Source: a virus
Direction: 5' to 3' (one strand)
Length of the DNA: 43,215 nt
Virus genome (UHGV): UHGV-0324072
Numbering within the stretch: the stretch's first letter is position 1; the number at the start of each line of letters is the position of its first letter. A program made the translations under genes and the position numbers. The notes below the pieces were generated by a model. That model was given only the letters and a program-made list of their open reading frames with translations. It did not search any database and was not told the DNA's origin. Of this stretch, positions 2,127 to 18,680 are shown one piece after another.

Positions 2127-4361
2127 CTATTCCAAATCCTCCTCTGTCACCACCAGCATCTCATTTGGTTCGTATAGTGTCTTCGGCCTTAATCTATCCC
2201 CTATTCTTTCGGGTATACGATATGTTCTCGGTACTACTTCGCCGTTAGCATCGCAACCAAGCATTAGTTCTCCATCTTTCAACATTTTATCAAGATGGGT
2301 GTTAGTCACAGAGAAGTCACCGGAACGAGCCACTATCTGCTGCTGAGTAAAACCGCGACCTGTGTCATCTGACTGTTGCAGGTCTTCCAGTGCCGAAAGT
2401 ATTGACTCCTTCCTTACTTCATCCCTGCCGCGTTTAACTTCTTCCTTTACTTTTTGCTTACCTTCTTTCGTCAACCCTTCTTCCCGCTCTTTCTCCTCGT
2501 CAGTTTTGAACGGCTCGAAACCCCACGGCATCAACACAAGCGCCTTGTGTGGTTCAGGAAGGTCCAGGTTTACGATTGTGCCGTATTCTTCTGTGCCCCC
2601 CAGGAACTCAACCGCACGGTACTCTTTCGGCGGCGGAGCTTCGCGGAACTGCACAGACTCCAGCACCATGCCAACCGTTTTCTGTTGAGGACCGTGCTTA
2701 AATTTCGAGTGGTATACGTTTATTTGACGGTCGGTTGCACGTTCGATTGTCAGTTCCACGTCAACACCCGCATACAGCGCCCCACTGCCGCGTGCTTTCT
2801 TTCCGCCCTTCTGCGTATGGTGGACAACGCCTACTGCGGCTTTAGTTGCATCGCGTACTTCTTTCAGAATGGCGATAACTTTACCCATGCCGATTGCTGT
2901 TGATGAACTGTTCTCGTCGAACTTATCAATCGTCAGTGCCAGGGTCTGGTTAAGGGTGTCGAACGCAACCATGCCAATTGGCTCGTCGCCAGCAGTTTCG
3001 CGCATTAACTTAATCAGGCTTTTAAGTTTGCCGACTTCGCCCATATCGATGACGTGTACATAATCTTTACCTTCCCCGCCATATTTAGCCGCTAGTGCAT
3101 CAATACGGGTGCGTGTAGCTGCGCCACCCTCACCATCAATATAGAAATGGTGGCAACGCTGGGTATCCGCCCCCGCAAACCTGTACCCGGCGGCGCTGAG
3201 GTACATCATCCCCAGCGTATAGAACGATTTGTACGTGCCAGATTCCCCGACGATATCCCAGATACAATCCGACGGCATGTACCCCTCAACGACGAAATCA
3301 GCCTTTACCGGCTCCGGTAACTCGTCCCCCTCTGAGTCCTCCTCTGAGTCCTCGTCGTCTTCCAGGTCGTCGAGGCTGCAAGTTACTGGGTCCTCGTTCT
3401 CTGTGCGGTGTAGTTCTTCAATCTCTTCTTCCGGTAAATCAGGCAGAGCCGCACGAATGCTGTTAATGCTGATAGGTTGCTTGTCTACGTTAAGCTCGTC
3501 TGGCAGGCCGCACATACGCAGGGCCAAATGCTGTCGGCGGTTAAGCTCGGTGCAAGCGCCGTTGTTTGTATGCTGGCAGACAAAGCGCACTTCTTTACCG
3601 TCGAGCATTATGCTGGTGGAGCCCTTGCCTGTATGCAGATGTTCGTTAGGGCATGGCACTTCGTACCCGCGCCCGGAAGATAAAGCGTCAAGGCCAAGCT
3701 CGGCTTCGCAGAAGTGTGCTATATCCGCGTTAAGCCCATGCTCATCAGCGGCAAGTGTTTTAGCCTCACGCTTACGCAACCCCATCTCTTCGGCTTTCTT
3801 GATGTACCGCTCGGCACGGATAACACGCCCTTCTGTAACCGTTATCTTCGACTCTTTGTGCGGCAGGTAGATAAGGCGGTTGCCATCTTCCGTGCAGTGG
3901 TCGCGCAACGCTTCGTCTATTTCTAACTCTGCACAAATAGCACGTTGCACCATCCACGCGTCGTTAGAGTTAAACGGCGTGCGAGCTGGAACCAGAACGC
4001 GGAAAGCGTAATCTCCGTTTTTACACACATGCTGATGCGATGCCGTTGTATGCAGAATATTGAAGAACGGTGCGTTCTTGAATTTGCGGGTAAGGTCGCG
4101 GTACTGAGTACGGTTGAGATGGTCAAAATCGAACTTAACCACACTGTCTTCCAGAATAGCGTTCTTACGGCGACCGCCAACAGGCGCAATAGCTTTCTGT
4201 TTAATCTTGGCCGCGTCGTACTCTTCCTTAGTCCATGACGGGTCCACGGATAAACGCTTCGATGTATCGCAGACATACTCCACAAACTGCTCGAGCGGCA
4301 TCTCACGCGCTACAGGGTTTTTATCGAATGTGTTACGCAGCGTTGCAAAAACAATATTCAT
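2127..4361 (-). CDS. DNA primase/helicase fusion (N-terminal primase-polymerase-like region, C-terminal RecA-fold replicative helicase)
   Basis: 744-aa ORF; Walker A-like GESGTYKSF, RecA/DnaB-like helicase segment; Cys/His-rich zinc-binding-like central region; C-terminus VVTEEDLE. Confidence 0.7.
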   Translation of the reverse strand: MNIVFATLRNTFDKNPVAREMPLEQFVEYVCDTSKRLSVDPSWTKEEYDAAKIKQKAIAPVGGRRKNAILEDSVVKFDFDHLNRTQYRDLTRKFKNAPFFNILHTTASHQHVCKNGDYAFRVLVPARTPFNSNDAWMVQRAICAELEIDEALRDHCTEDGNRLIYLPHKESKITVTEGRVIRAERYIKKAEEMGLRKREAKTLAADEHGLNADIAHFCEAELGLDALSSGRGYEVPCPNEHLHTGKGSTSIMLDGKEVRFVCQHTNNGACTELNRRQHLALRMCGLPDELNVDKQPISINSIRAALPDLPEEEIEELHRTENEDPVTCSLDDLEDDEDSEEDSEGDELPEPVKADFVVEGYMPSDCIWDIVGESGTYKSFYTLGMMYLSAAGYRFAGADTQRCHHFYIDGEGGAATRTRIDALAAKYGGEGKDYVHVIDMGEVGKLKSLIKLMRETAGDEPIGMVAFDTLNQTLALTIDKFDENSSSTAIGMGKVIAILKEVRDATKAAVGVVHHTQKGGKKARGSGALYAGVDVELTIERATDRQINVYHSKFKHGPQQKTVGMVLESVQFREAPPPKEYRAVEFLGGTEEYGTIVNLDLPEPHKALVLMPWGFEPFKTDEEKEREEGLTKEGKQKVKEEVKRGRDEVRKESILSALEDLQQSDDTGRGFTQQQIVARSGDFSVTNTHLDKMLKDGELMLGCDANGEVVPRTYRIPERIGDRLRPKTLYEPNEMLVVTEEDLE
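2130..2147. repeat. 18-bp exact repeat TTCCAAATCCTCCTCTGT (second copy 42550..42567), encoding C-terminal TEEDLE of two replication proteins
   Basis: identical nucleotide strings at both gene 3' ends. Confidence 0.8.
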
Positions 4362-5699: not shown

Positions 5700-5935
5700 T
5701 GCAAATCATAATTACGGATAACACAGTTGCCTACGAAAAAGGTGGCGACAATACTCTGGAAAGAATAGGCGTAAATATAGGTGACGTTTTTGATGTGCTT
5801 GGTACTGTATCAGGCGGTTGGTGGATTAAGGTTGGACACAACAAAGTGCCAGTAACTAAGGCCGAAGCGGAAATATACACAACGGCATCGAATCATGATG
5901 CTCGTGCCAACGACTCTGAGGGAGGTTGCCGTTAA
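5699..5935 (+). CDS. hypothetical protein (78 aa)
   Basis: ATG 5699 overlaps upstream stop (TGATG). Confidence 0.45.
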   Translation: MQIIITDNTVAYEKGGDNTLERIGVNIGDVFDVLGTVSGGWWIKVGHNKVPVTKAEAEIYTTASNHDARANDSEGGCR

Positions 5936-6126
5936 TGAGAATTCGTATAACTGATGTTGATTATGTGGACCCGCGCGATGGTGACGATTTGCCGCTTAGT
6001 TACTGGGGCGTTGCAGTAGGAGATGAGTTTGAGGTTACACACGCCGGTTCCGCTATGTTCATTATTGAACGTGACGCGGGGTATGTAGTTGTGTATGCAA
6101 GTGAATGCGAAGTTCTGGAGGACTAA
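5935..6126 (+). CDS. hypothetical protein (63 aa)
   Basis: ATG 5935 overlaps upstream stop (TAATG); RBS GAGGGAGG. Confidence 0.45.
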   Translation: MRIRITDVDYVDPRDGDDLPLSYWGVAVGDEFEVTHAGSAMFIIERDAGYVVVYASECEVLED

Positions 6127-6961: not shown

Positions 6962-7254
6962 TGTCGTTAGCAACTGACATCCTGAAACGAAGCGGCCTTG
7001 CGCCGCTGTCACCGAGAGCGAAGACACGTATACACAAGCGTCGCCGTAACGTGCTGTACCCAGAGATACAAGAACGGCGTAAAGCTATCCGCGCCTGTGG
7101 ATTCCAGAACGGAAAGGCCGTGAATCTCGGTGAGTTTAAAACAAAGGAACGCGCAGCTATCGCGAACCGGCTATTTAATTACTGGAAATCGCTGGGGTAC
7201 GATGATATTCCGACGAAACCACAGAGACGACAATACATCTGGAGACATAAATGA
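6961..7254 (+). CDS. basic hypothetical protein (97 aa)
   Basis: ATG 6961 overlapping upstream stop; track start 6916 is an alternative codon. Confidence 0.45.
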   Translation: MSLATDILKRSGLAPLSPRAKTRIHKRRRNVLYPEIQERRKAIRACGFQNGKAVNLGEFKTKERAAIANRLFNYWKSLGYDDIPTKPQRRQYIWRHK

Positions 7255-7691
7255 CTACTATCGCGTTTGACGGAAAGACAATGGCCTGTGATACCCGTGT
7301 TGTGTGCGGGAGTAACTGTTACAACACAGACACAAAGATATACGAGAACGAATTTGTTGTTATTGGGGCGGCTGGCGATGCAGGGGTTGGTATCCTTTTA
7401 GTGGAGGACGATAGTATTTTAGTGCCTAAGCACTACGATTTTGATTTCTCTGCCTTGGTGTGGGTTAAAGACATCGAAACGTTGTGTAGGGTGGAGTTCT
7501 ATAAATCTTGGGATTGTGCTCTTAGTTTGGTTATTCAGATTGCGGACAGCTTTTCCGCCGTTGGTTCAGGCGCCCCTTATGCCCTAGCGGCTATGGAATG
7601 TGGGTATTCGGCGCAAGGTGGTGTAGCAGTTGCATCGAAGTTCTACCCTGACACCGGCGGCAAGATTATTACCAAACAACTATTAGGATAA
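7251..7691 (+). CDS. HslV/proteasome-beta-like N-terminal nucleophile (Ntn) hydrolase (146 aa)
   Basis: N-terminus MTTIAF (Thr directly after Met) and AVGSGAPYALAAM resemble HslV TTIV and IGSGGPYAQAAA; ATGA coupling to upstream gene. Confidence 0.45.
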   Translation: MTTIAFDGKTMACDTRVVCGSNCYNTDTKIYENEFVVIGAAGDAGVGILLVEDDSILVPKHYDFDFSALVWVKDIETLCRVEFYKSWDCALSLVIQIADSFSAVGSGAPYALAAMECGYSAQGGVAVASKFYPDTGGKIITKQLLG

Positions 7692-7750: not shown

Positions 7751-8059
7751 TTGGATAAATTTACTGAAACAGTGACTGGGTGGCTTCTGGCAGCCGCACT
7801 AGCTGGTGGGGTAATCGGACTACGACAACATAAGTCCGCTATTTCCGGCCCTATCGACGGATTCTGCTTTATTGCAACTGGCTTCACTTGCGCCGTATTT
7901 GGCGCGCCTCTCGCCGCTCAATGGTTCGGTATTACCGGAGAGCGCGAGATAGCTGGCCTCGGATTCATCATCGCAATTCTCTGGATGCCCATCTATTCCC
8001 GTCTCTCCGGTATCGTCGCCGGAGAATACATCGCACGTCGAGGAGGCACAGATGAATGA
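7751..8059 (+). CDS. putative holin (three predicted transmembrane segments)
   Basis: TTG start 7 nt after GGAGGG; hydrophobic stretches GWLLAAALAGGVIGL, FCFIATGFTCAVFGAPLAA, IAGLGFIIAILWMPIY; sits upstream of endolysin. Confidence 0.45.
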   Translation: MDKFTETVTGWLLAAALAGGVIGLRQHKSAISGPIDGFCFIATGFTCAVFGAPLAAQWFGITGEREIAGLGFIIAILWMPIYSRLSGIVAGEYIARRGGTDE

Positions 8060-8324
8060 ATTATTCTGGTTCGGCGGTATGCTGGCAATCGGAGGCACAT
8101 CGCTGTTTAATGTATATCACCCCAGCGTGGATGACGGATTATTTGGCCGTGTGCTATATATCCTGACCGCTATTGTCTGCGCCGCAGGATGTATCCACCT
8201 GTTACAGGGCAGCATGTCTCCGACGCTGCCTGAGACATTAATCACATTAGTTGCGCTGCGCCAGATTCGTCAGACGTGGCTGTCATACGGAGGACATAAG
8301 CGTGTCTCGAAATATTTCAGATAA
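8052..8324 (+). CDS. membrane protein, putative second holin/antiholin (two transmembrane segments)
   Basis: ORF track; ATG overlaps end of holin gene. Confidence 0.4.
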   Translation: MNELFWFGGMLAIGGTSLFNVYHPSVDDGLFGRVLYILTAIVCAAGCIHLLQGSMSPTLPETLITLVALRQIRQTWLSYGGHKRVSKYFR

Positions 8325-8414
8325 TGGACTTACCGCAGATAAGCTGCGCGAGGTTTTACACTACGACCCCGATACCGGAGTTTTCGCGAACCATAAATTA
8401 CGGGAAGGTGCTTT

Positions 8415-8900
8415 ATGAGAAACATTAGCAACAATGGCATCAAATTCACCGCCGCGTTCGAGGGATTCCGCGGAACTGCGTATCGTGCTACGCCAAATGA
8501 GAAGTACCTGACTATTGGGTACGGTCATTATGGGCCAGACGTAACGCCAGGCAAGACCATCACCCCGGGACAAGGCCTCCTGTTACTGAATCGTGATATG
8601 GCTAAGGCCGTAGCTGCGGTTGACGCAGCAGCACACCATTCATTGACACAGGCACAGTTCGATGCAGTGTGCGACCTGGTATACAACGCAGGTGCTGGTG
8701 TGATTGCTGCTACTACCGGCACGGGTAAGGCACTGCGTTCTGGTGATATTGCAACGCTGCGGGCTAAGCTGACACTGTTCATCAACCAGAACGGCAGACC
8801 GTTACTTGGTCTGCGCCGCCGTACTGCCGGTCGTCTGGCGCTGTTCGACGGTAAACCGTGGCAAGAGGCAGAGGCTATCGGGCGCGCGGTGAAAGGTTGA
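8415..8900 (+). CDS. endolysin, GH24 phage lysozyme
   Basis: FEGFRGTAYRATPNEKYLTIGYGH catalytic Glu-Asp-Thr lysozyme motif; RBS GGAAGG. Confidence 0.85.
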   Translation: MRNISNNGIKFTAAFEGFRGTAYRATPNEKYLTIGYGHYGPDVTPGKTITPGQGLLLLNRDMAKAVAAVDAAAHHSLTQAQFDAVCDLVYNAGAGVIAATTGTGKALRSGDIATLRAKLTLFINQNGRPLLGLRRRTAGRLALFDGKPWQEAEAIGRAVKG

Positions 8901-8964: not shown

Positions 8965-8998
8965 ATCCCGGCCCTGACCCAGCCGGGATTTTTTTTAT
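8965..8998 (+). terminator. rho-independent terminator after endolysin
   Basis: TCCCGG...CCGGGA hairpin followed by TTTTTTTT. Confidence 0.65.
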
Positions 8999-9018: not shown

Positions 9019-9047
9019 TTGACTATTACCTACGACCCTATTATATT
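9019..9047 (+). promoter_or_regulatory. sigma70-like promoter TTGACT-N17-TATATT
   Basis: TTGACT 9019..9024, TATATT 9042..9047. Confidence 0.45.
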
Positions 9048-11070: not shown

Positions 11071-11094
11071 AGCCCTCTACGGAGGGCTTTTCTG
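11071..11094 (+). terminator. rho-independent terminator upstream of terminase genes
   Basis: AGCCCTC-tacg-GAGGGCT then TTTCTGT. Confidence 0.5.
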
Positions 11095-11187
11095 TACATC
11101 CCGCCCAATCCCCTTATATAATCCCTTTAGACGCGTAGGGCGCGTCTGGTGCGCTCTGATGGTCAGACGCATATGCAAGGGGATTCT

Positions 11188-14467: not shown

Positions 14468-14487
14468 AAGGCCCCGCTAGGGGCCTT
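14468..14487. terminator. bidirectional hairpin terminator AAGGCCCC-gcta-GGGGCCTT
   Basis: perfect 8-bp GC-rich stem between convergent genes. Confidence 0.6.
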
Positions 14488-14491
14488 AGCT

Positions 14492-15145
14492 TTAACGTAT
14501 ATTAGCCGCACATTTACGCACAACCCGAGGTATCGCCTCTTTCAGTTCACCCCATGTATTAACGGCCTCCATGTCAAGAAGTGTCACCAGAGCTTTCTGG
14601 ATGTCACTTCGCAACTGATTGGTCTTCGCATCCTGAGAGTCCCATGTATCGAAACCCGTTACGTCGCGGATATCTACGGATTCCTTTACCGCTTTAGCCA
14701 CCTGTATGAAGTGTCCACTGTGGCCAATTCTTCCCTCCGTGCGCTCAATCATTCGACTAACGGCAGCGTTAAGCTCGACAAAGCTCACCGCGCCAATGTT
14801 TCGTAGTTCTACCTGCCGTTGTGTGATAAAGCGGTCGATAACGAGGAAATGGAAATAGGCGCTGTATTGCTCAGCAATATATACTGCCAGATGGAGACAT
14901 GCAAAGGTGCGACCGTTTCGGCCTTTCGTCGCCCTTATGGCATTCTCGATTCCGAGTTGTTTTTCGCATTCCTCCTTGAAAATCTTGAAGCCATCCGTTG
15001 CCATGACCTGGCGAAGCTCTCTTGCCCCCATGCCGTTGTCTAAACGCCAACGGTTCATCTGGTCAACCAGCTCGTTTACGTTAATAAAGTTTTCACGGTC
15101 AAAAGTGATTTCTCCATAAGGGAACTCTAATGTTTGCAGTTTCAT
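14492..15145 (-). CDS. KilA-N domain protein (217 aa), reverse-oriented insertion
   Basis: KGRNGRTFACLHLAVYIAEQYSAYFHFLVIDRF resembles the KilA-N core; ATG 15145 with AGGAG RBS. Confidence 0.5.
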   Translation of the reverse strand: MKLQTLEFPYGEITFDRENFINVNELVDQMNRWRLDNGMGARELRQVMATDGFKIFKEECEKQLGIENAIRATKGRNGRTFACLHLAVYIAEQYSAYFHFLVIDRFITQRQVELRNIGAVSFVELNAAVSRMIERTEGRIGHSGHFIQVAKAVKESVDIRDVTGFDTWDSQDAKTNQLRSDIQKALVTLLDMEAVNTWGELKEAIPRVVRKCAANIR

Positions 15146-16331: not shown

Positions 16332-16792
16332 TGACGGGCTTTTTCAAAGTAACTGATGTGCCGTCACGTCGCGTAGTCCAGTACGCTCGTGTGTCTGGCT
16401 CCGGTGAGAACGTAACCTACGTTGAGGATGAAAGTGTACTAGGTACACCTGTAGACGAGATGCCGTACGCAGACAAGACAGGTATCGCACTCTCTGCTGC
16501 TGGTATGCTTTATGAAATTCCGTATCTGGCTGACGCAGGCGATGTGTATTTCTCTGTACAACCGCAGGACGTTGAACTGGCAGATGGCAGCGCAACTATC
16601 ACTGTCGAAGTTAAGGCGGGTAAATCCCCCTATGCACTGGCCTGGTACAAAGACGGCAAGGAAGTAGTAAACGCGCCCGAAGAGGCTTTGTCTCTGACGG
16701 TTAACGCGGTCGGTGAATACTTCGTTAAAGTTACCGATTCCGATGGTGTAGCGGCCGTCAGTAAAGCAGCGAAGGTCACTAAGCCAGACTGA
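16331..16792 (+). CDS. Ig-like domain protein (153 aa)
   Basis: ALAWYKDGKEVV...GEYFVKVTDSDG Ig-like strand pattern. Confidence 0.45.
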   Translation: MTGFFKVTDVPSRRVVQYARVSGSGENVTYVEDESVLGTPVDEMPYADKTGIALSAAGMLYEIPYLADAGDVYFSVQPQDVELADGSATITVEVKAGKSPYALAWYKDGKEVVNAPEEALSLTVNAVGEYFVKVTDSDGVAAVSKAAKVTKPD

Positions 16793-16795
16793 TAA

Positions 16796-16816
16796 AAGGC
16801 CCCATTACGGGGCCTT
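16796..16816. terminator. bidirectional hairpin terminator AAGGCCCC-attac-GGGGCCTT
   Basis: between convergent genes 16331..16792 and 16822..17025. Confidence 0.6.
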
Positions 16817-16821
16817 AGTTT

Positions 16822-17025
16822 TCAACGGAATTTTGTGTTTAAATCCTGCTCATGGACAACCCTCAGAACAGTGTCATAATCCCCGTATCTTCCAGGTTCA
16901 AATATATCTAATGCCTTGTAAGCAGACATTGCGTCAGGGAAAACCTGCAGAACCTTTTTAACCCGGCACAAGTCACCGTCGAACTCTTCATCGAACTCTT
17001 GAACTACTTCGCAAATTGCATACAT
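16822..17025 (-). CDS. hypothetical protein (67 aa), reverse-oriented insertion with own promoter
   Basis: ATG 17025, RBS AGGAGG; promoter 17053..17081. Confidence 0.5.
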   Translation of the reverse strand: MYAICEVVQEFDEEFDGDLCRVKKVLQVFPDAMSAYKALDIFEPGRYGDYDTVLRVVHEQDLNTKFR

Positions 17026-17052
17026 TTTTCACCTCCTGTTTAAGTTAACTGA

Positions 17053-17081
17053 ATAGTACCCTATTATATTGGGGTGTGCAA
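17053..17081 (-). promoter_or_regulatory. promoter TTGCAC-N17-TACTATTCA (minus strand)
   Basis: rc of 17053..17081; 31-bp core almost identical to 26174..26204. Confidence 0.5.
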
Positions 17082-17133
17082 ACTATTTATTTACGTATTC
17101 CAGTTATTCCTCCGAATTGTAAATGTTGGAATA

Positions 17134-17149
17134 AACTATTCGAATAGTT
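17134..17149. promoter_or_regulatory. perfect 16-bp palindrome AACTATTCGAATAGTT (candidate operator)
   Basis: self-complementary; overlaps TTGACT (17148..17153) of a candidate plus-strand promoter. Confidence 0.45.
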
Positions 17150-17182
17150 GACTTTTCACTAAAAATATGATAAGCTCCACCT

Positions 17183-17383
17183 GAGCTTGTGAAGTATGAA
17201 CAAGCGACCGCGGCGCGGGCAGGTAACGGAGCGGGACGTAAGTCCTGAGTGTAGTTACGCTGACGCGTTCGGAAGGGCCATACTCTATTGCTTGTGTAAA
17301 AAGTAACTGGTTTACTGAGATTACGCCGTTTCTATGTTTAAATGATAAGGACTAGCGCCCCGCTTTATGGCGGGGCTTTACTT
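17183..17383 (+). ncRNA. candidate small RNA or leader transcript, ending at terminator 17357..17383
   Basis: about 200 bp with no ORF over 37 codons, between candidate promoter (TTGACT 17148 / TAAGCT 17171) and GCCCCGC-tttatg-GCGGGGC plus TTTACTT. Confidence 0.2.
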
Positions 17384-17400
17384 ATCGAGAAAGGGGAAAC

Positions 17401-17787
17401 ATGAATCTTAAAGCAACTGTCGTAGCAGGAGCATGTTTCATCATCCTGGTTTACACACACGGCATCTACCAGTATCGCAGCGGATGGAACGAAGGCCGGG
17501 CTAATCTCGTTTCGCAGCAACAGCAGAAAGCACAGGCTGAGTTAGCGAAGAAAACACAACGGCAGCAGCAGGATGAATCGAAGGCCGCCGCCGCTGACAA
17601 CGAAGGCAAGACGAAATCAGAGGTGATTACCCGTGAAGTCGTTAAGTACATTAAAACGCCTGGTCGCAGCGTGTGCACTTTTGACCCTGAGCGCGTGCAG
17701 CTCAAGTCCCGCGCCGTCGCCAACGCCAATTCCATCCCCGGATACGACGATGATGCAGCCGCCGTGCAAACTGGCGCAGCCAAGTAG
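17401..17787 (+). CDS. i-spanin (Rz-like)
   Basis: N-terminal transmembrane segment TVVAGACFIILVYTHGIY then Gln/Ala-rich coiled-coil region; contains the embedded o-spanin ORF. Confidence 0.55.
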   Translation: MNLKATVVAGACFIILVYTHGIYQYRSGWNEGRANLVSQQQQKAQAELAKKTQRQQQDESKAAAADNEGKTKSEVITREVVKYIKTPGRSVCTFDPERVQLKSRAVANANSIPGYDDDAAAVQTGAAK

Positions 17788-17896
17788 CGACGCTGATGAG
17801 GATTTGGCCGTCGACGTTCAGAATGCTGAATGCGTACGGCAACTGAGACTGAAAGTGTTCATGTTGCAGGATTACGTGAGGAATATTCTGGAATAG
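17633..17896 (+). CDS. o-spanin (Rz1-like lipoprotein), +1 frame, overlapping 3' end of i-spanin
   Basis: signal peptide with lipobox LTLSAC, proline-rich PAPSPTPIPSPD, Cys residues. Confidence 0.55.
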   Translation: MKSLSTLKRLVAACALLTLSACSSSPAPSPTPIPSPDTTMMQPPCKLAQPSSDADEDLAVDVQNAECVRQLRLKVFMLQDYVRNILE

Positions 17897-17978
17897 TTGC
17901 CTTGCATGTTGGAATAATTTATTCTTGACATGTAAATCCGGGTGGCCCGGGTTCCAACGTCCAGGGGACATACTGACT

Positions 17979-18680
17979 ATGAATCGTTTTTTACGTTATC
18001 CGTTCCAGGAAGAAGCTGGGGCAGAAGATAAAGCTGGTGGCGGTGACGCGCCGAAAATGTTCACCGCTGAAGAAGTTCAGGCGCTGATTGAGAAAGAAGT
18101 TGCCGGGCTTAAGGCTAATCAGGAAGCATTGTTGGCGGAGAAGAAAGAAGCCGCTCGCAAAGCAAAAGAGGCCGAAGAAGAACGGCAGCGCGCGCACCAG
18201 GAGGCGTTAAAAGCCGCTGGTAAGATGGATGAGTTCGAAAAGACGATTCGTAGCCAGTACGACCCTGTGTTAGCCGAGAAAGACGGTCGCATCTCCAGAA
18301 TGGCAGAGCGTATCCTCGGCAGCGAACGTAAAGCGGTGCTAGGCTCTTTCGCGGGTGACTTTATTACCCCAGAAGCAGTGGACATTCTTGCGCCGTTCGT
18401 TAAGACTGAGTTCGAAGGCGATGATGTGGTTACTAAGTTTGTTGGTGCAGACGGTAACGTAATCACGACTGACCCGGAACAGTTCCGCAAATACCTGCGC
18501 GAACACAAGGCGTTTTCGCATTTGATCAAAGCAAATGCAGCTTCCGGCGGCGGGGCTTCCGGTAGCAAAGGCGGCGGGGCCGCACCAGCATTTAAAGACA
18601 TGAGTGAAGCAGAGCGTTTAGCCCTGTATAAATCGAACCCTGCCGAATTTGAACGGCAACTTAAAGCCCTGAGGAAATAA
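17979..18680 (+). CDS. putative scaffolding protein
   Basis: ATG 17979; Ala/Glu/Lys-rich helical protein directly upstream of capsid gene; called by position. Confidence 0.5.
   Translation: MNRFLRYPFQEEAGAEDKAGGGDAPKMFTAEEVQALIEKEVAGLKANQEALLAEKKEAARKAKEAEEERQRAHQEALKAAGKMDEFEKTIRSQYDPVLAEKDGRISRMAERILGSERKAVLGSFAGDFITPEAVDILAPFVKTEFEGDDVVTKFVGADGNVITTDPEQFRKYLREHKAFSHLIKANAASGGGASGSKGGGAAPAFKDMSEAERLALYKSNPAEFERQLKALRK

Follow-up and report, generated by a model that had tools for sequence, protein, structure and literature searches.

Overlapping genes at 17401-17896

The window, which is the whole stretch of 43,215 nucleotides that was analysed, is a Kagunavirus genome (Guernseyvirinae; K1G-like coliphage). 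It carries two overlapping genes on the plus strand between a Hoc-like decoration gene and the scaffold gene, inside the head-gene module. The first gene (17401-17787, plus strand) starts with ATG and encodes a putative i-spanin of 128 residues. The second gene (17633-17896, plus strand) starts with GTG, lies in the +1 frame relative to the first and encodes a putative o-spanin of 87 residues. The overlap between the two is 155 nt, and the o-spanin gene continues for 109 nt beyond the i-spanin stop. The i-spanin ATG is preceded by the Shine–Dalgarno sequence AAAGGGGA at 17389-17396 (plus strand), of which AAAGG is invariant in alignment A2. The o-spanin GTG has its own strong Shine–Dalgarno sequence, GAGGTGAT, at 17620-17627 (plus strand), inside the i-spanin gene and 5 nt upstream of the start codon. 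This site is kept as GAGGTGAT or GAGGTAAT in Kagunavirus-type loci and is an annotated RBS in phage Shashou.

The N-terminal transmembrane domain (TMD) of the i-spanin spans residues 5-23 (17413-17469; ATVVAGACFIILVYTHGIY), which is the best 19-residue Kyte–Doolittle window with a value of 1.72. A second hydrophobic segment is absent by hydropathy, and the protein thus has the single TMD expected of a spanin of this kind. The periplasmic part is abundant in Ala (16), Gln (11) and Lys (10), and a Gln/Ala-rich helix follows the TMD up to about residue 63. AF2 run without an alignment places residues 3-63 in a helix with pLDDT values of 75-90; this model is confident for residues 1-63 only, and the C-terminal half, with pLDDT below 50, was neither interpreted nor fold-searched. 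In alignment A1, the C-terminal half is a separate conserved domain, ITxEVVKY..PGRxVCxFD..AxxNAN, and the periplasmic Cys92 inside it is nearly invariant. The i-spanin matches phrog_2536 ('Rz-like spanin') over its full length with an E-value of 5e-57, and diversity in the part that belongs to the i-spanin alone is.169/.099/.386 at codon positions 1/2/3, a position-3 excess in the i-spanin frame.

The N-terminus of the o-spanin, MKSLSTLKRLVAACALLTLSAC, fits a PROSITE PS51257-style lipobox rule with Cys22 (codon 17696-17698). The signal comprises an n-region with K2, K8 and R9, an h-region LVAACALLTL and the lipobox LSAC, which fits [LVI][ASTVI][GAS]C. The +2 residue is Ser and not Asp, as outer-membrane sorting demands. 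Both this lipoprotein-signal call and the TMD call of the i-spanin are rule-based. The mature part is 66 residues long and has a Pro-rich linker, with eight Pro among its first 25 residues; no hydrophobic segment is found by hydropathy outside the signal peptide. The conserved C-terminal domain, PPCK..SSDADEDLAxDVQNAECVRQLRLKVF, contains Cys45 and Cys67 (full-length numbering), both of which are kept in every o-spanin sequence compared. Residues 9-86 match phrog_1267, labelled as an Rz-like spanin, with an E-value of 3e-21. When the whole window was scanned in six frames with the same lipoprotein rule, three ORFs were returned, of which the o-spanin alone is strong, and the scan gave no other credible lipoprotein ORF or spanin candidate in the genome.

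These features agree closely with an earlier note on this DNA, which had described an overlapped spanin pair at 17401-17896. The observation itself is confirmed: the ORFs lie exactly as placed, and they match Kongari 2018, the announcement of phage Schulenberg and the annotation of Shashou. The N-terminal transmembrane helix of the first protein was correctly called, as were the signal peptide, lipobox, Pro-rich segment and Cys residues of the +1-frame ORF from 17633 and its extension past the i-spanin stop. The note had also given the i-spanin a Gln/Ala-rich periplasmic coiled-coil; that description suits about residues 27-63 and does not extend to the C-terminal half with its different conserved domain.

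Predicted promoter and structured leader

Upstream of the pair, we found a predicted sigma-70 promoter of the extended -10 type at 17149-17177 (plus strand), composed of TTGACT, a 17-nt spacer ending in TGa, and TAAGCT. Relatives in Kagunavirus and in Jerseyvirus share its conserved -35, TGn and -10 elements, and the pattern has no other match in the window. From this arrangement we infer that the promoter would drive the leader and the spanin genes.

The promoter is followed by a leader RNA of about 200 nt at 17186-17385 (plus strand) that is both conserved and structured, with a minimum free energy of -73 kcal/mol (z = -2.6) and an invariant motif, TTCGGAAGGGCC, at 17268-17279. Compensatory changes occur in 9 of the 36 consensus pairs, and 98.5% of the alignment cells are paired, compared with 33-53% when the partners are slid. 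The leader has no Rfam match at E <= 1 in a scan of 16700-18100, in which the single match is a meaningless snoRNA at 18036, and ARAGORN detects neither a tRNA nor a tmRNA in the window. The 3' end of the leader is a G+C-rich hairpin at 17357-17385 (plus strand; GCCCCGC-TTTATG-GCGGGGC, then TTTACTTAT; -17.9 kcal/mol, z = -3.6), which ends 16 nt before the i-spanin start. Its stem varies by compensatory changes among relatives (CCCTGC/GCAGGG, CCCAGC/GCTGGG, CCCGGC/GCCGGG and CCCGAC/GTCGGG), and it resembles an attenuator or intrinsic terminator whose U tract is weak. A long-range helix joining the leader's 5' end to sequence past the terminator is doubtful, because the Jersey-type sequences can form a local hairpin there instead and the compensatory cells amount to a single clade split.

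In relatives, 17196-17306 within the leader is annotated as a 36-aa ORF. We rejected this ORF as a gene because its reading frame is disrupted in 14 of 38 sequences that still keep the nucleotides. Five of the 29 Kagunavirus-type sequences carry a frameshift in it, and all nine of the Jersey-type sequences lack it.

Holin–endolysin cassette and probable transcription units

The other lysis genes lie upstream in the window. Two overlapping holin-like genes at 7751-8324 form a putative 'holin/antiholin' pair. The first (7751-8059, plus strand) encodes 102 residues with about three TMDs by hydropathy and matches phrog_2359 (9e-30), and the second (8052-8324, plus strand) encodes 90 residues with about two TMDs and matches phrog_2508 (1e-33). 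They are followed at 8415-8900 (plus strand) by a 161-residue endolysin, a muramidase of the T4-lysozyme type (PF00959 Phage_lysozyme, 8e-27; phrog_7 and phrog_33703), in which hydropathy reveals no N-terminal TMD or SAR segment. A canonical intrinsic terminator at 8965-8997 (plus strand), with an 8-bp stem followed by T8 (-13.8 kcal/mol, z = -3.2), sits 65 nt past the endolysin stop and is predicted to end the holin–endolysin unit. A minus-strand gene of 217 residues, called 'amidase' in PHROGs, was considered as a third lysis locus and was not counted, because its sole domain evidence is a sub-threshold KilA-N match.

The spanin genes lie downstream of the holin–holin–endolysin cassette, with 8.5 kb between the endolysin stop and the i-spanin start, and this interval holds three further terminator-like hairpins and two genes on the opposite strand. 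That the lysis functions occupy two transcription units can be soundly inferred and is well supported by the sequence, because of the terminator after the endolysin, the three hairpins, the two opposite-strand genes and the conserved spanin promoter. The earlier note had likewise set the spanins apart from holin, antiholin and endolysin at 7751-8900, and this separation is borne out by the distance, by the phrog and PF00959 matches and by the published arrangement (PMC6763661). Its placement of the cassette in an 'early array' is unsupported: the one Kagunavirus RNA-seq study that we found assigns the lysozyme gene to the 'middle' class, together with the head genes.

Regarding expression, the spanins would most likely be transcribed from their own conserved promoter through the structured leader with the terminator hairpin at its end. 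It is possible, and we propose it tentatively, that the leader is a previously undescribed cis-acting RNA that gates the spanin genes, in which case these would be more than plain members of the late head operon. Read-through, by antitermination or attenuation, might then time the expression of the spanins, and perhaps of the head genes, independently of the holin–endolysin unit. Alternatively, the leader might be a stable small RNA.

Conservation and public records

The spanin region is 99.5% identical to that of phage vB-Eco-KMB35. By tblastn, the i-spanin is 63-68% identical to Jersey-type loci and the o-spanin 64-67%, and both reach up to 99% identity to Kagunavirus-type loci. The pair is conserved throughout Guernseyvirinae and Dhillonvirus, and in Dhillonvirus, too, it lies between the genes for head morphogenesis and the scaffold. 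The +1-frame lipoprotein ORF is kept in 80 of 80 related IMG/VR viral contigs despite a strongly divergent N-terminus, in which the lipobox reads LSAC, LASC, LNGC, LSGC, ITGC, MSGC, LTGC and others. This count is made up of 70 loci recognized by a corrected lipoprotein pattern, seven by the first pattern and three by eye; the last three are Kagunavirus-type loci in which a Glu in the n-region or an SSNADEDL variant broke the automated rule. The spanin region is matched by 495 phage records, many of which carry a spanin annotation. The o-spanin is shortened to 47 residues in many GenBank records.

Assignment to the Jersey spanin family

We compared the pair with the anatomy of two-component spanins (Summer 2007; Kongari 2018). 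All of the expected parts are found: a TMD in the i-spanin, a lipobox in the o-spanin, overlapped adjacency and periplasmic Cys in both, among which Cys92 of the i-spanin and Cys45 and Cys67 of the o-spanin are candidates for intermolecular disulfides. The 'Jersey' overlapped family comprises Jersey, SETP3, K1G, K1H, K1ind1-3, HK578, SO-1 and others, whose genes overlap by 155 bp and whose o-spanins have Cys45 and Cys67 as constant residues (Kongari 2018, PMC6139136); the window shares the overlap and both Cys, and both subunits are similar in sequence. We are therefore confident that the two ORFs together encode the two-component spanin of a Kagunavirus siphophage and belong to this family. 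Their function as spanins is probable from the targeting signals, the architecture and analogy. The literature searched contains no experimental tests of any Jersey-family spanin.

The relation to the best-known spanins is one of class and not of sequence. In Pfam and NCBIfam scans of both proteins, nothing rose above the curated cut-offs, and the matches below them are to DUF2514, LysC/P2_Rz1 and generic lipoprotein signals. The top Pfam match of the i-spanin is DUF2514 (17.2 bits; cut-off 26), and neither protein matches the lambda Rz (Phage_lysis) or Rz1 families at E <= 1 in Pfam. The o-spanin scores 12.1 bits against LysC PF23793 (cut-off 27) and 17.3 bits against NF038368 P2_Rz1 (cut-off 27, E = 0.004), a weak resemblance to the P2 o-spanin family. 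Membership of the lambda or P2 (LysB/LysC) sequence families was rejected because no score reached a curated cut-off, and the same scans give no match above cut-off to experimentally studied spanins. The label 'Rz/Rz1-type' in the earlier note thus stands for functional class and architecture and fails for the sequence family. A unimolecular spanin of the T1 gp11 type was also rejected, as the o-spanin lacks a C-terminal TMD and the TMD is on the separate i-spanin.

We also considered that the pair might have no part in lysis and be a moron of the head module, serving superinfection exclusion or receptor blocking while the outer membrane is disrupted by other means. Lipoproteins such as Cor and Llp are examples of such functions. 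The distance of 8.5 kb from the lysis cassette, the moron-like layout with its own promoter, leader, terminator and flanking direct repeats, and the lack of above-threshold similarity to tested spanins or of a tested family member in the literature found would all suit this explanation. However, spanins are defined by just this anatomy, in which overlapping frames encode a TMD protein and a short Pro-rich lipoprotein, both with conserved periplasmic Cys, and the pair is universal and not sporadic in Guernseyvirinae and Dhillonvirus. The genome has no other spanin candidate, the weak P2 Rz1/LysC resemblance points to lysis, and the T4 spanins show that adjacency to holin and endolysin genes is unnecessary (Kongari 2018, PMC6139136). 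A role outside lysis is therefore very unlikely.

The start of the o-spanin also had to be weighed, since a 47-aa ORF from ATG 17753 would yield a small soluble product, lacking a signal peptide, instead of a lipoprotein. This ORF is annotated in RefSeq/GenBank for Golestan, Bas74, Jersey, skrot and others, and phrog_5672, an Rz-like spanin profile of length 47 that was built from such calls, matches residues 41-87 of the o-spanin at 2e-30. Nevertheless, ATG 17753 lacks a Shine–Dalgarno sequence (ccggatacgacgatgATG), whereas GTG 17633 has GAGGTGAT. The frame upstream of ATG 17753 is open in all 80 relatives, with a hydrophobic segment and a lipobox Cys; SETP3 has ATG at the codon equivalent to GTG 17633; and in the Dhillonvirus PaulFeyerabend no internal Met occurs from the lipobox to the conserved PPC motif. 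Miscalled start codons are, moreover, a general problem of o-spanin annotation (Kongari 2018, PMC6139136). We regard the shorter product as extremely unlikely to be the real one; GTG 17633 is the correct o-spanin start.

Substitutions within the overlap track the i-spanin frame, and the o-spanin signal and linker are therefore only loosely constrained. This pattern, together with our own estimate that 51 stop-free codons in an alternative frame arise in about 9% of random sequence, could suggest that the i-spanin ORF alone is real and the +1 ORF an untranslated chance frame, but that reading is refuted for practical purposes by the clear +1 coding signature past the i-spanin stop (diversity.162/.091/.365 at codon positions 1/2/3, a position-3 excess), by the high conservation of the protein encoded there, down to Dhillonvirus and Klebsiella phages, and by Cornellvirus, which encodes the same protein almost without overlap (8 nt).

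Proposed mechanism and significance

As a spanin pair modelled on lambda Rz/Rz1, the i-spanin would be seated in the inner membrane in an N-in/C-out orientation, and the o-spanin would be lipidated and Lol-sorted to the inner leaflet of the outer membrane. The subunits would form disulfide-linked homodimers, and the C-terminal domains of the two proteins would bind across the periplasm. After the endolysin has been set free by the holin and the murein has been broken down, the spanin complexes would fuse the inner and outer membranes as the last lysis step.

The spanin pair and its position away from holin and endolysin are already published for K1G-like phages, and our result is correct but ordinary. 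It reproduces from raw sequence a family catalogued in 2018 by the Young laboratory and a gene arrangement that a genome announcement had given before, and little is at stake. The practical value is as an annotation check: Guernseyvirinae records, including those in RefSeq, often have a 47-aa o-spanin or none, and phrog_5672 is a family of shortened o-spanin calls without the signal peptide. Among the elements described here, the structured leader alone might represent new biology. Should it control read-through, it would offer a way into how the last lysis step is timed apart from holin and endolysin in a virulent siphophage.

Comparison with known systems

The closest system is the Jersey family, which shares with the window the 155-nt overlap, the +1 frame and Cys45/Cys67, as well as an i-spanin whose long first helix precedes a conserved segment that is not helical. 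The i-spanin of the window is 63-98% identical to those of Jerseyvirus and Kagunavirus members. The lipobox is LNGC in Jersey and LSAC in the window, and the start codon is ATG in SETP3 and GTG in the window; otherwise nothing substantial differs. Shashou (MK931440, CPT annotation) has genes of 387 and 264 nt with a 232-nt offset and an RBS for each gene, as in the window, and its o-spanin is annotated 'Contains N-terminal lipobox'. The differences are at strain level only, with 93% DNA identity and the lipobox LASC. Schulenberg (MK931438, CPT annotation) also shows only strain-level sequence differences, and its announcement describes holin/antiholin and endolysin genes apart from the spanins (PMC6763661).

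The lambda Rz/Rz1 pair is of the same functional class and is built alike: the inner-membrane partner is a type II protein whose periplasmic domain is helical, the outer-membrane partner is a short Pro-rich lipoprotein read from the same DNA in the +1 frame, and periplasmic Cys are present. However, sequence homology is not detectable, the window pair is overlapped and not fully embedded, and, unlike in lambda, it lies outside the holin–endolysin cassette. The mature o-spanin of the window is also longer, with 66 residues and a conserved helical C-terminal domain. Upstream of the lambda lysis genes, the pR'-6S RNA-tR' layout resembles the promoter, leader and terminator of the window.

PseT.3/PseT.2 of T4 are likewise encoded at a distance from t (holin) and e (endolysin) (Kongari 2018, PMC6139136), although their architecture is separated, their sequences are unrelated and their genomic context is different. 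Finally, Cornellvirus (FSL_SP-031, Shemara and VSiA) carries homologues of both spanins at the corresponding place in the genome. Its overlap is only 8 nt, which is 'separated' under Kongari's criteria, and its i-spanin is without the C-terminal tail, which in the window is encoded by the overlap region.

Probable spanin genes and their products

The window covers essentially the whole genome of a siphophage of the K1G-like type, in the genus Kagunavirus (subfamily Guernseyvirinae). Its region 17101-18200 shares 99.5% identity with Escherichia phage vB-Eco-KMB35 and 99.4% with phage SonjaBuckley_Bas74, and is matched by 495 phage records, mostly Salmonella Jerseyvirus and Escherichia Kagunavirus. 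Two overlapping plus-strand ORFs lie here exactly where the earlier note had placed a spanin pair: the i-spanin at 17401..17787 (ATG start, 128 aa) and the o-spanin, in the +1 frame, at 17633..17896 (GTG start, 87 aa). The overlap is 155 nt, and the o-spanin continues for 109 nt beyond the i-spanin stop. The two ORFs very probably form a two-component spanin; our confidence is not higher mainly because a literature search turned up no experiment testing a member of the Jersey spanin family, the overlapped family to which such pairs belong.

The i-spanin has a single hydrophobic segment (residues 5-23), in agreement with the N-terminal transmembrane helix claimed earlier, and Ala, Gln and Lys are abundant in its periplasmic part. 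AlphaFold2, run without an alignment, gives one unbroken helix over residues 3-63, comprising the transmembrane segment and a Gln/Ala-rich stalk (pLDDT 75-90), and no confidence past residue 63. The proposed Gln/Ala-rich coiled coil thus holds for the first periplasmic helix only. The conserved part is the C-terminal half, where an alignment of ten i-spanins shows the motifs ITxEVVKY, PGRxVCxFD and AxxNAN and a nearly invariant Cys92.

In front of the o-spanin GTG, at a distance of 5 nt, stands GAGGTGAT, which matches the Shine-Dalgarno consensus at eight bases. In the N-terminus, MKSLSTLKRLVAACALLTLSAC, a basic n-region and then a hydrophobic core lead up to the lipobox LSAC; this sequence satisfies a PROSITE PS51257-style rule, which predicts Cys22 as the lipidated residue. 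The mature protein would have 66 residues: a Pro/Ser/Thr-rich linker comes first, with 8 Pro among 25 residues, and Cys45 and Cys67 are also part of it. All of the features that had been attributed to this frame, from signal peptide to proline-rich segment and cysteines, are therefore present. The +2 residue is Ser, from which the established +2 rule predicts that the o-spanin is sorted to the outer membrane.

The o-spanin reading frame is more than chance

Four independent checks agree that the o-spanin lipoprotein ORF is not a product of chance. When all six frames of the 43-kb window are scanned, three ORFs pass the same lipoprotein rule, and the two besides the o-spanin are weak and lie inside other genes. 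In 80 related loci taken from IMG/VR via the i-spanin alignment, the +1 frame keeps, without exception (80/80), an ORF in which a start codon is followed by a hydrophobic stretch and a lipobox Cys. The N-terminal part is strongly divergent among these loci, yet the Cys is retained, in lipoboxes that include LSAC, LASC, LNGC, LSGC, ITGC, MSGC, LTGC, TVAC and LCSC. The GTG and its Shine-Dalgarno sequence are retained in Kagunavirus-type loci, and SETP3-type phages have ATG at the equivalent codon.

Nucleotide diversity per codon position was compared across 11 genomes of Kagunavirus, Jerseyvirus and related phages. In the i-spanin-only region (.169,.099 and.386 at positions 1, 2 and 3 of the i-spanin frame) and in the extension after the i-spanin stop (.162,.091 and.365 in the o-spanin frame), diversity is distributed as is usual for coding sequence in the respective frame. 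Within the overlap, substitutions track the i-spanin frame (.222,.185 and.350), which is compatible with an o-spanin whose signal peptide and linker are constrained in character and not in sequence. Finally, Cornellvirus relatives encode the same two proteins with an overlap of only 8 nt, so the o-spanin exists independently of the overlap.

Family assignment and annotation

In PHROGs, the i-spanin matches phrog_2536 (Rz-like spanin) over its full length (5e-57), and the o-spanin matches phrog_1267 over residues 9-86 (3e-21) and also phrog_5672. Neither protein matches the Pfam families of lambda Rz or Rz1 at E <= 1, and matches to DUF2514, LysC and NCBIfam P2_Rz1 are weak, all under the curated cut-offs. 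Because these matches are absent or below cut-off, the pair is classified from its sequence as a putative spanin by class and architecture, without detectable kinship to lambda Rz/Rz1 or P2 LysB/LysC. The description 'Rz/Rz1-type' is apt in the former sense and not in the latter. With this qualification, the observation of the earlier note is confirmed and its interpretation supported.

Many GenBank/RefSeq records (Golestan, Bas74, Jersey, skrot) reduce the o-spanin to a 47-aa ORF whose start is the ATG equivalent to 17753, a version that lacks the signal peptide and lipobox. This ORF occupies 17753..17896 in the window, and 5838-5981, 3654-3797, 1775-1918 and 1873-2016 in the homologous loci L001, L002, L012 and L013, respectively. 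The records of wksl3, ER23 and Tsm2 omit the o-spanin, and phrog_5672 (profile length 47) derives from the shortened form. The GTG at 17633, taken as the start in the earlier note, is the right one.

Probable transcriptional separation from the lysis cassette

The lysis cassette ends a rightward run of small ORFs, and 8.5 kb separate the endolysin stop from the i-spanin start. On the plus strand, two ORFs with matches to holin families, 7751..8059 (phrog_2359; about three hydrophobic segments by hydropathy) and 8052..8324 (phrog_2508; about two), are followed by a T4-lysozyme-type endolysin at 8415..8900 (PF00959, 8e-27), whose N-terminus has no hydrophobic segment by hydropathy. These matches uphold the assignment of holin and endolysin genes to 7751..8900. 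Their placement in an 'early array' is unsupported. RNA-seq of vB_Eco_K1B4, the only such Kagunavirus study found, assigns the lysozyme gene, like the head genes, to the 'middle' class; the spanins go unmentioned there.

A canonical plus-strand terminator (8965-8997; 8-bp stem, then T8) lies 65 nt past the endolysin stop and is followed by a promoter-like site (9019-9047, +). A second terminator (11071-11096, +) and promoter-like site (11093-11122, +) lie ahead of the terminase genes, before that for the small terminase, and a hairpin that could serve either strand (14468-14487) follows the portal gene. Two opposite-strand genes, 14492..15145 and 16822..17025 (67 aa), lie between cassette and spanins, and a G+C-rich hairpin (17357-17385, +) directly precedes the i-spanin. 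Upstream of this hairpin is a predicted extended -10 promoter (17149-17177, +; TTGACT, a 17-nt spacer ending TGa, TAAGCT), with elements conserved in both Kagunavirus and Jerseyvirus. From these terminators and hairpins, opposite-strand genes and conserved promoter, we infer with good support that the spanin and holin/endolysin genes belong to separate transcription units.

Several further features of these regions were observed. The terminator/promoter-like pairs along the plus strand suggest several short operons and not one long late transcript. A minus-strand promoter-like site (17164-17193; TTCACA, 18-nt spacer, CATATT) overlaps the 17149-17177 promoter and is directed towards the 67-aa gene; the two may be divergent promoters with a common control region. 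The ORF directly upstream of the holin genes (7251..7691) matches phrog_1040, 'peptidase HslV family' (5e-32), with a sub-threshold match to Pfam Proteasome (E = 0.021). The gene at 14492..15145 (-; 217 aa) is an insertion that separates the portal and head-morphogenesis genes; it is absent from the close relative Bas74 and is found mainly in Salmonella Jerseyvirus (335 of 342 records). PHROGs (phrog_6095, 9e-121) and many records call it 'amidase'; this lysis label looks unfounded, the sole domain evidence being a sub-threshold KilA-N match, alongside a distant Vibrio phage homologue annotated KilA.

A structured leader upstream of the spanins

The 300 nt preceding the spanins are more than ordinary spacer DNA. 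The promoter is followed by a conserved leader, rich in G+C and about 200 nt long (17186-17385), which folds better than 200/200 shuffles (z = -2.6) and includes TTCGGAAGGGCC as an invariant motif; Rfam has no match to it. Compensatory variants occur in the terminator-like terminal hairpin (CCCCGC/GCGGGG, CCCTGC/GCAGGG, CCCAGC/GCTGGG, CCCGGC/GCCGGG and CCCGAC/GTCGGG) and in an inner GNRA-capped hairpin (GGGAC/GTCC, GGTGC/GCAC and GGGCG/CGCCC). Across 38 distinct leader sequences, 98.5% of cells are paired versus 33-53% with partners slid, and 9 of 36 pairs show both-sided changes, the structure being derived from the same alignment used to score pairing and most compensatory cells reflecting one Kagunavirus-versus-Jerseyvirus split. 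A 36-aa ORF in the leader (17196..17306), annotated in relatives as a hypothetical protein, was rejected: it is frameshifted in 5/29 Kagunavirus-type and absent from 9/9 Jersey-type sequences, and so disrupted or missing in 14 of the 38. The leader may serve in attenuation or antitermination, or may be a stable small RNA.

In Cornellvirus-type and 'pink'-type relatives (homologous loci L004, L010, L016, L017 and, from IMG/VR, L065-L085), the leader ends differently: within the last 60 nt ahead of the i-spanin start, GTGGGG..CCCCAC covaries with GTAGGGA..TCCCTAC. The CCCC can alternatively pair with a GGGG adjoining the Shine-Dalgarno sequence, which suggests a translational or attenuation switch. 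In the window, the hexamer TATTCC/GGAATA forms only two clusters in the genome (17096-17133 and 17880-17916), the second overlapping the last o-spanin codons (RNILE*), and a 19-nt direct repeat, ATGTTGGAATAAnnTATTC, occurs at 17123-17141 and 17906-17924. Both elements flank the leader-plus-spanin unit; they may be sites where a regulator binds, or may remain from the duplication of a promoter.

Proposed function and comparison with known systems

Given the targeting signals, architecture, conserved cysteines and conservation observed in the two genes, the lambda model would place the i-spanin in the inner membrane with its N-terminus in and C-terminus out, and the o-spanin, lipidated at Cys22 and carried by Lol, in the outer membrane. 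In the periplasm the C-terminal domains would come together, and each subunit would form homodimers linked by disulfides; after removal of the murein by the endolysin, the complexes would fuse the inner and outer membranes.

The pair and its arrangement are already known. The 'Jersey' overlapped spanin family comprises 27 phages, including K1G, K1H, K1ind1-3, SETP3, SE2 and HK578; the overlap of the Jersey spanins is 155 bp, versus 8 bp in FSL_SP-031, o-spanin Cys45 and Cys67 are constant, and the i-spanin consists of two helices with predicted beta strands in the linker between them (Kongari et al. 2018, PMC6139136). The genome announcement of phage Schulenberg places the holin/antiholin and endolysin genes apart from the spanins (PMC6763661). 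Phage Shashou, as annotated by the Center for Phage Technology, agrees with the window in both gene lengths and in their offset, and its record gives a ribosome-binding site for each gene and the note 'Contains N-terminal lipobox'. The order of promoter, short structured RNA and terminator, then lysis gene, then head genes recalls lambda pR'-6S-tR'. As in the window, the spanins of Dhillonvirus (HK578, PaulFeyerabend) lie between head-morphogenesis/decoration genes and the scaffold gene, so this position is old. T4 is the textbook example of a phage whose spanin genes lie apart from those for holin and endolysin.
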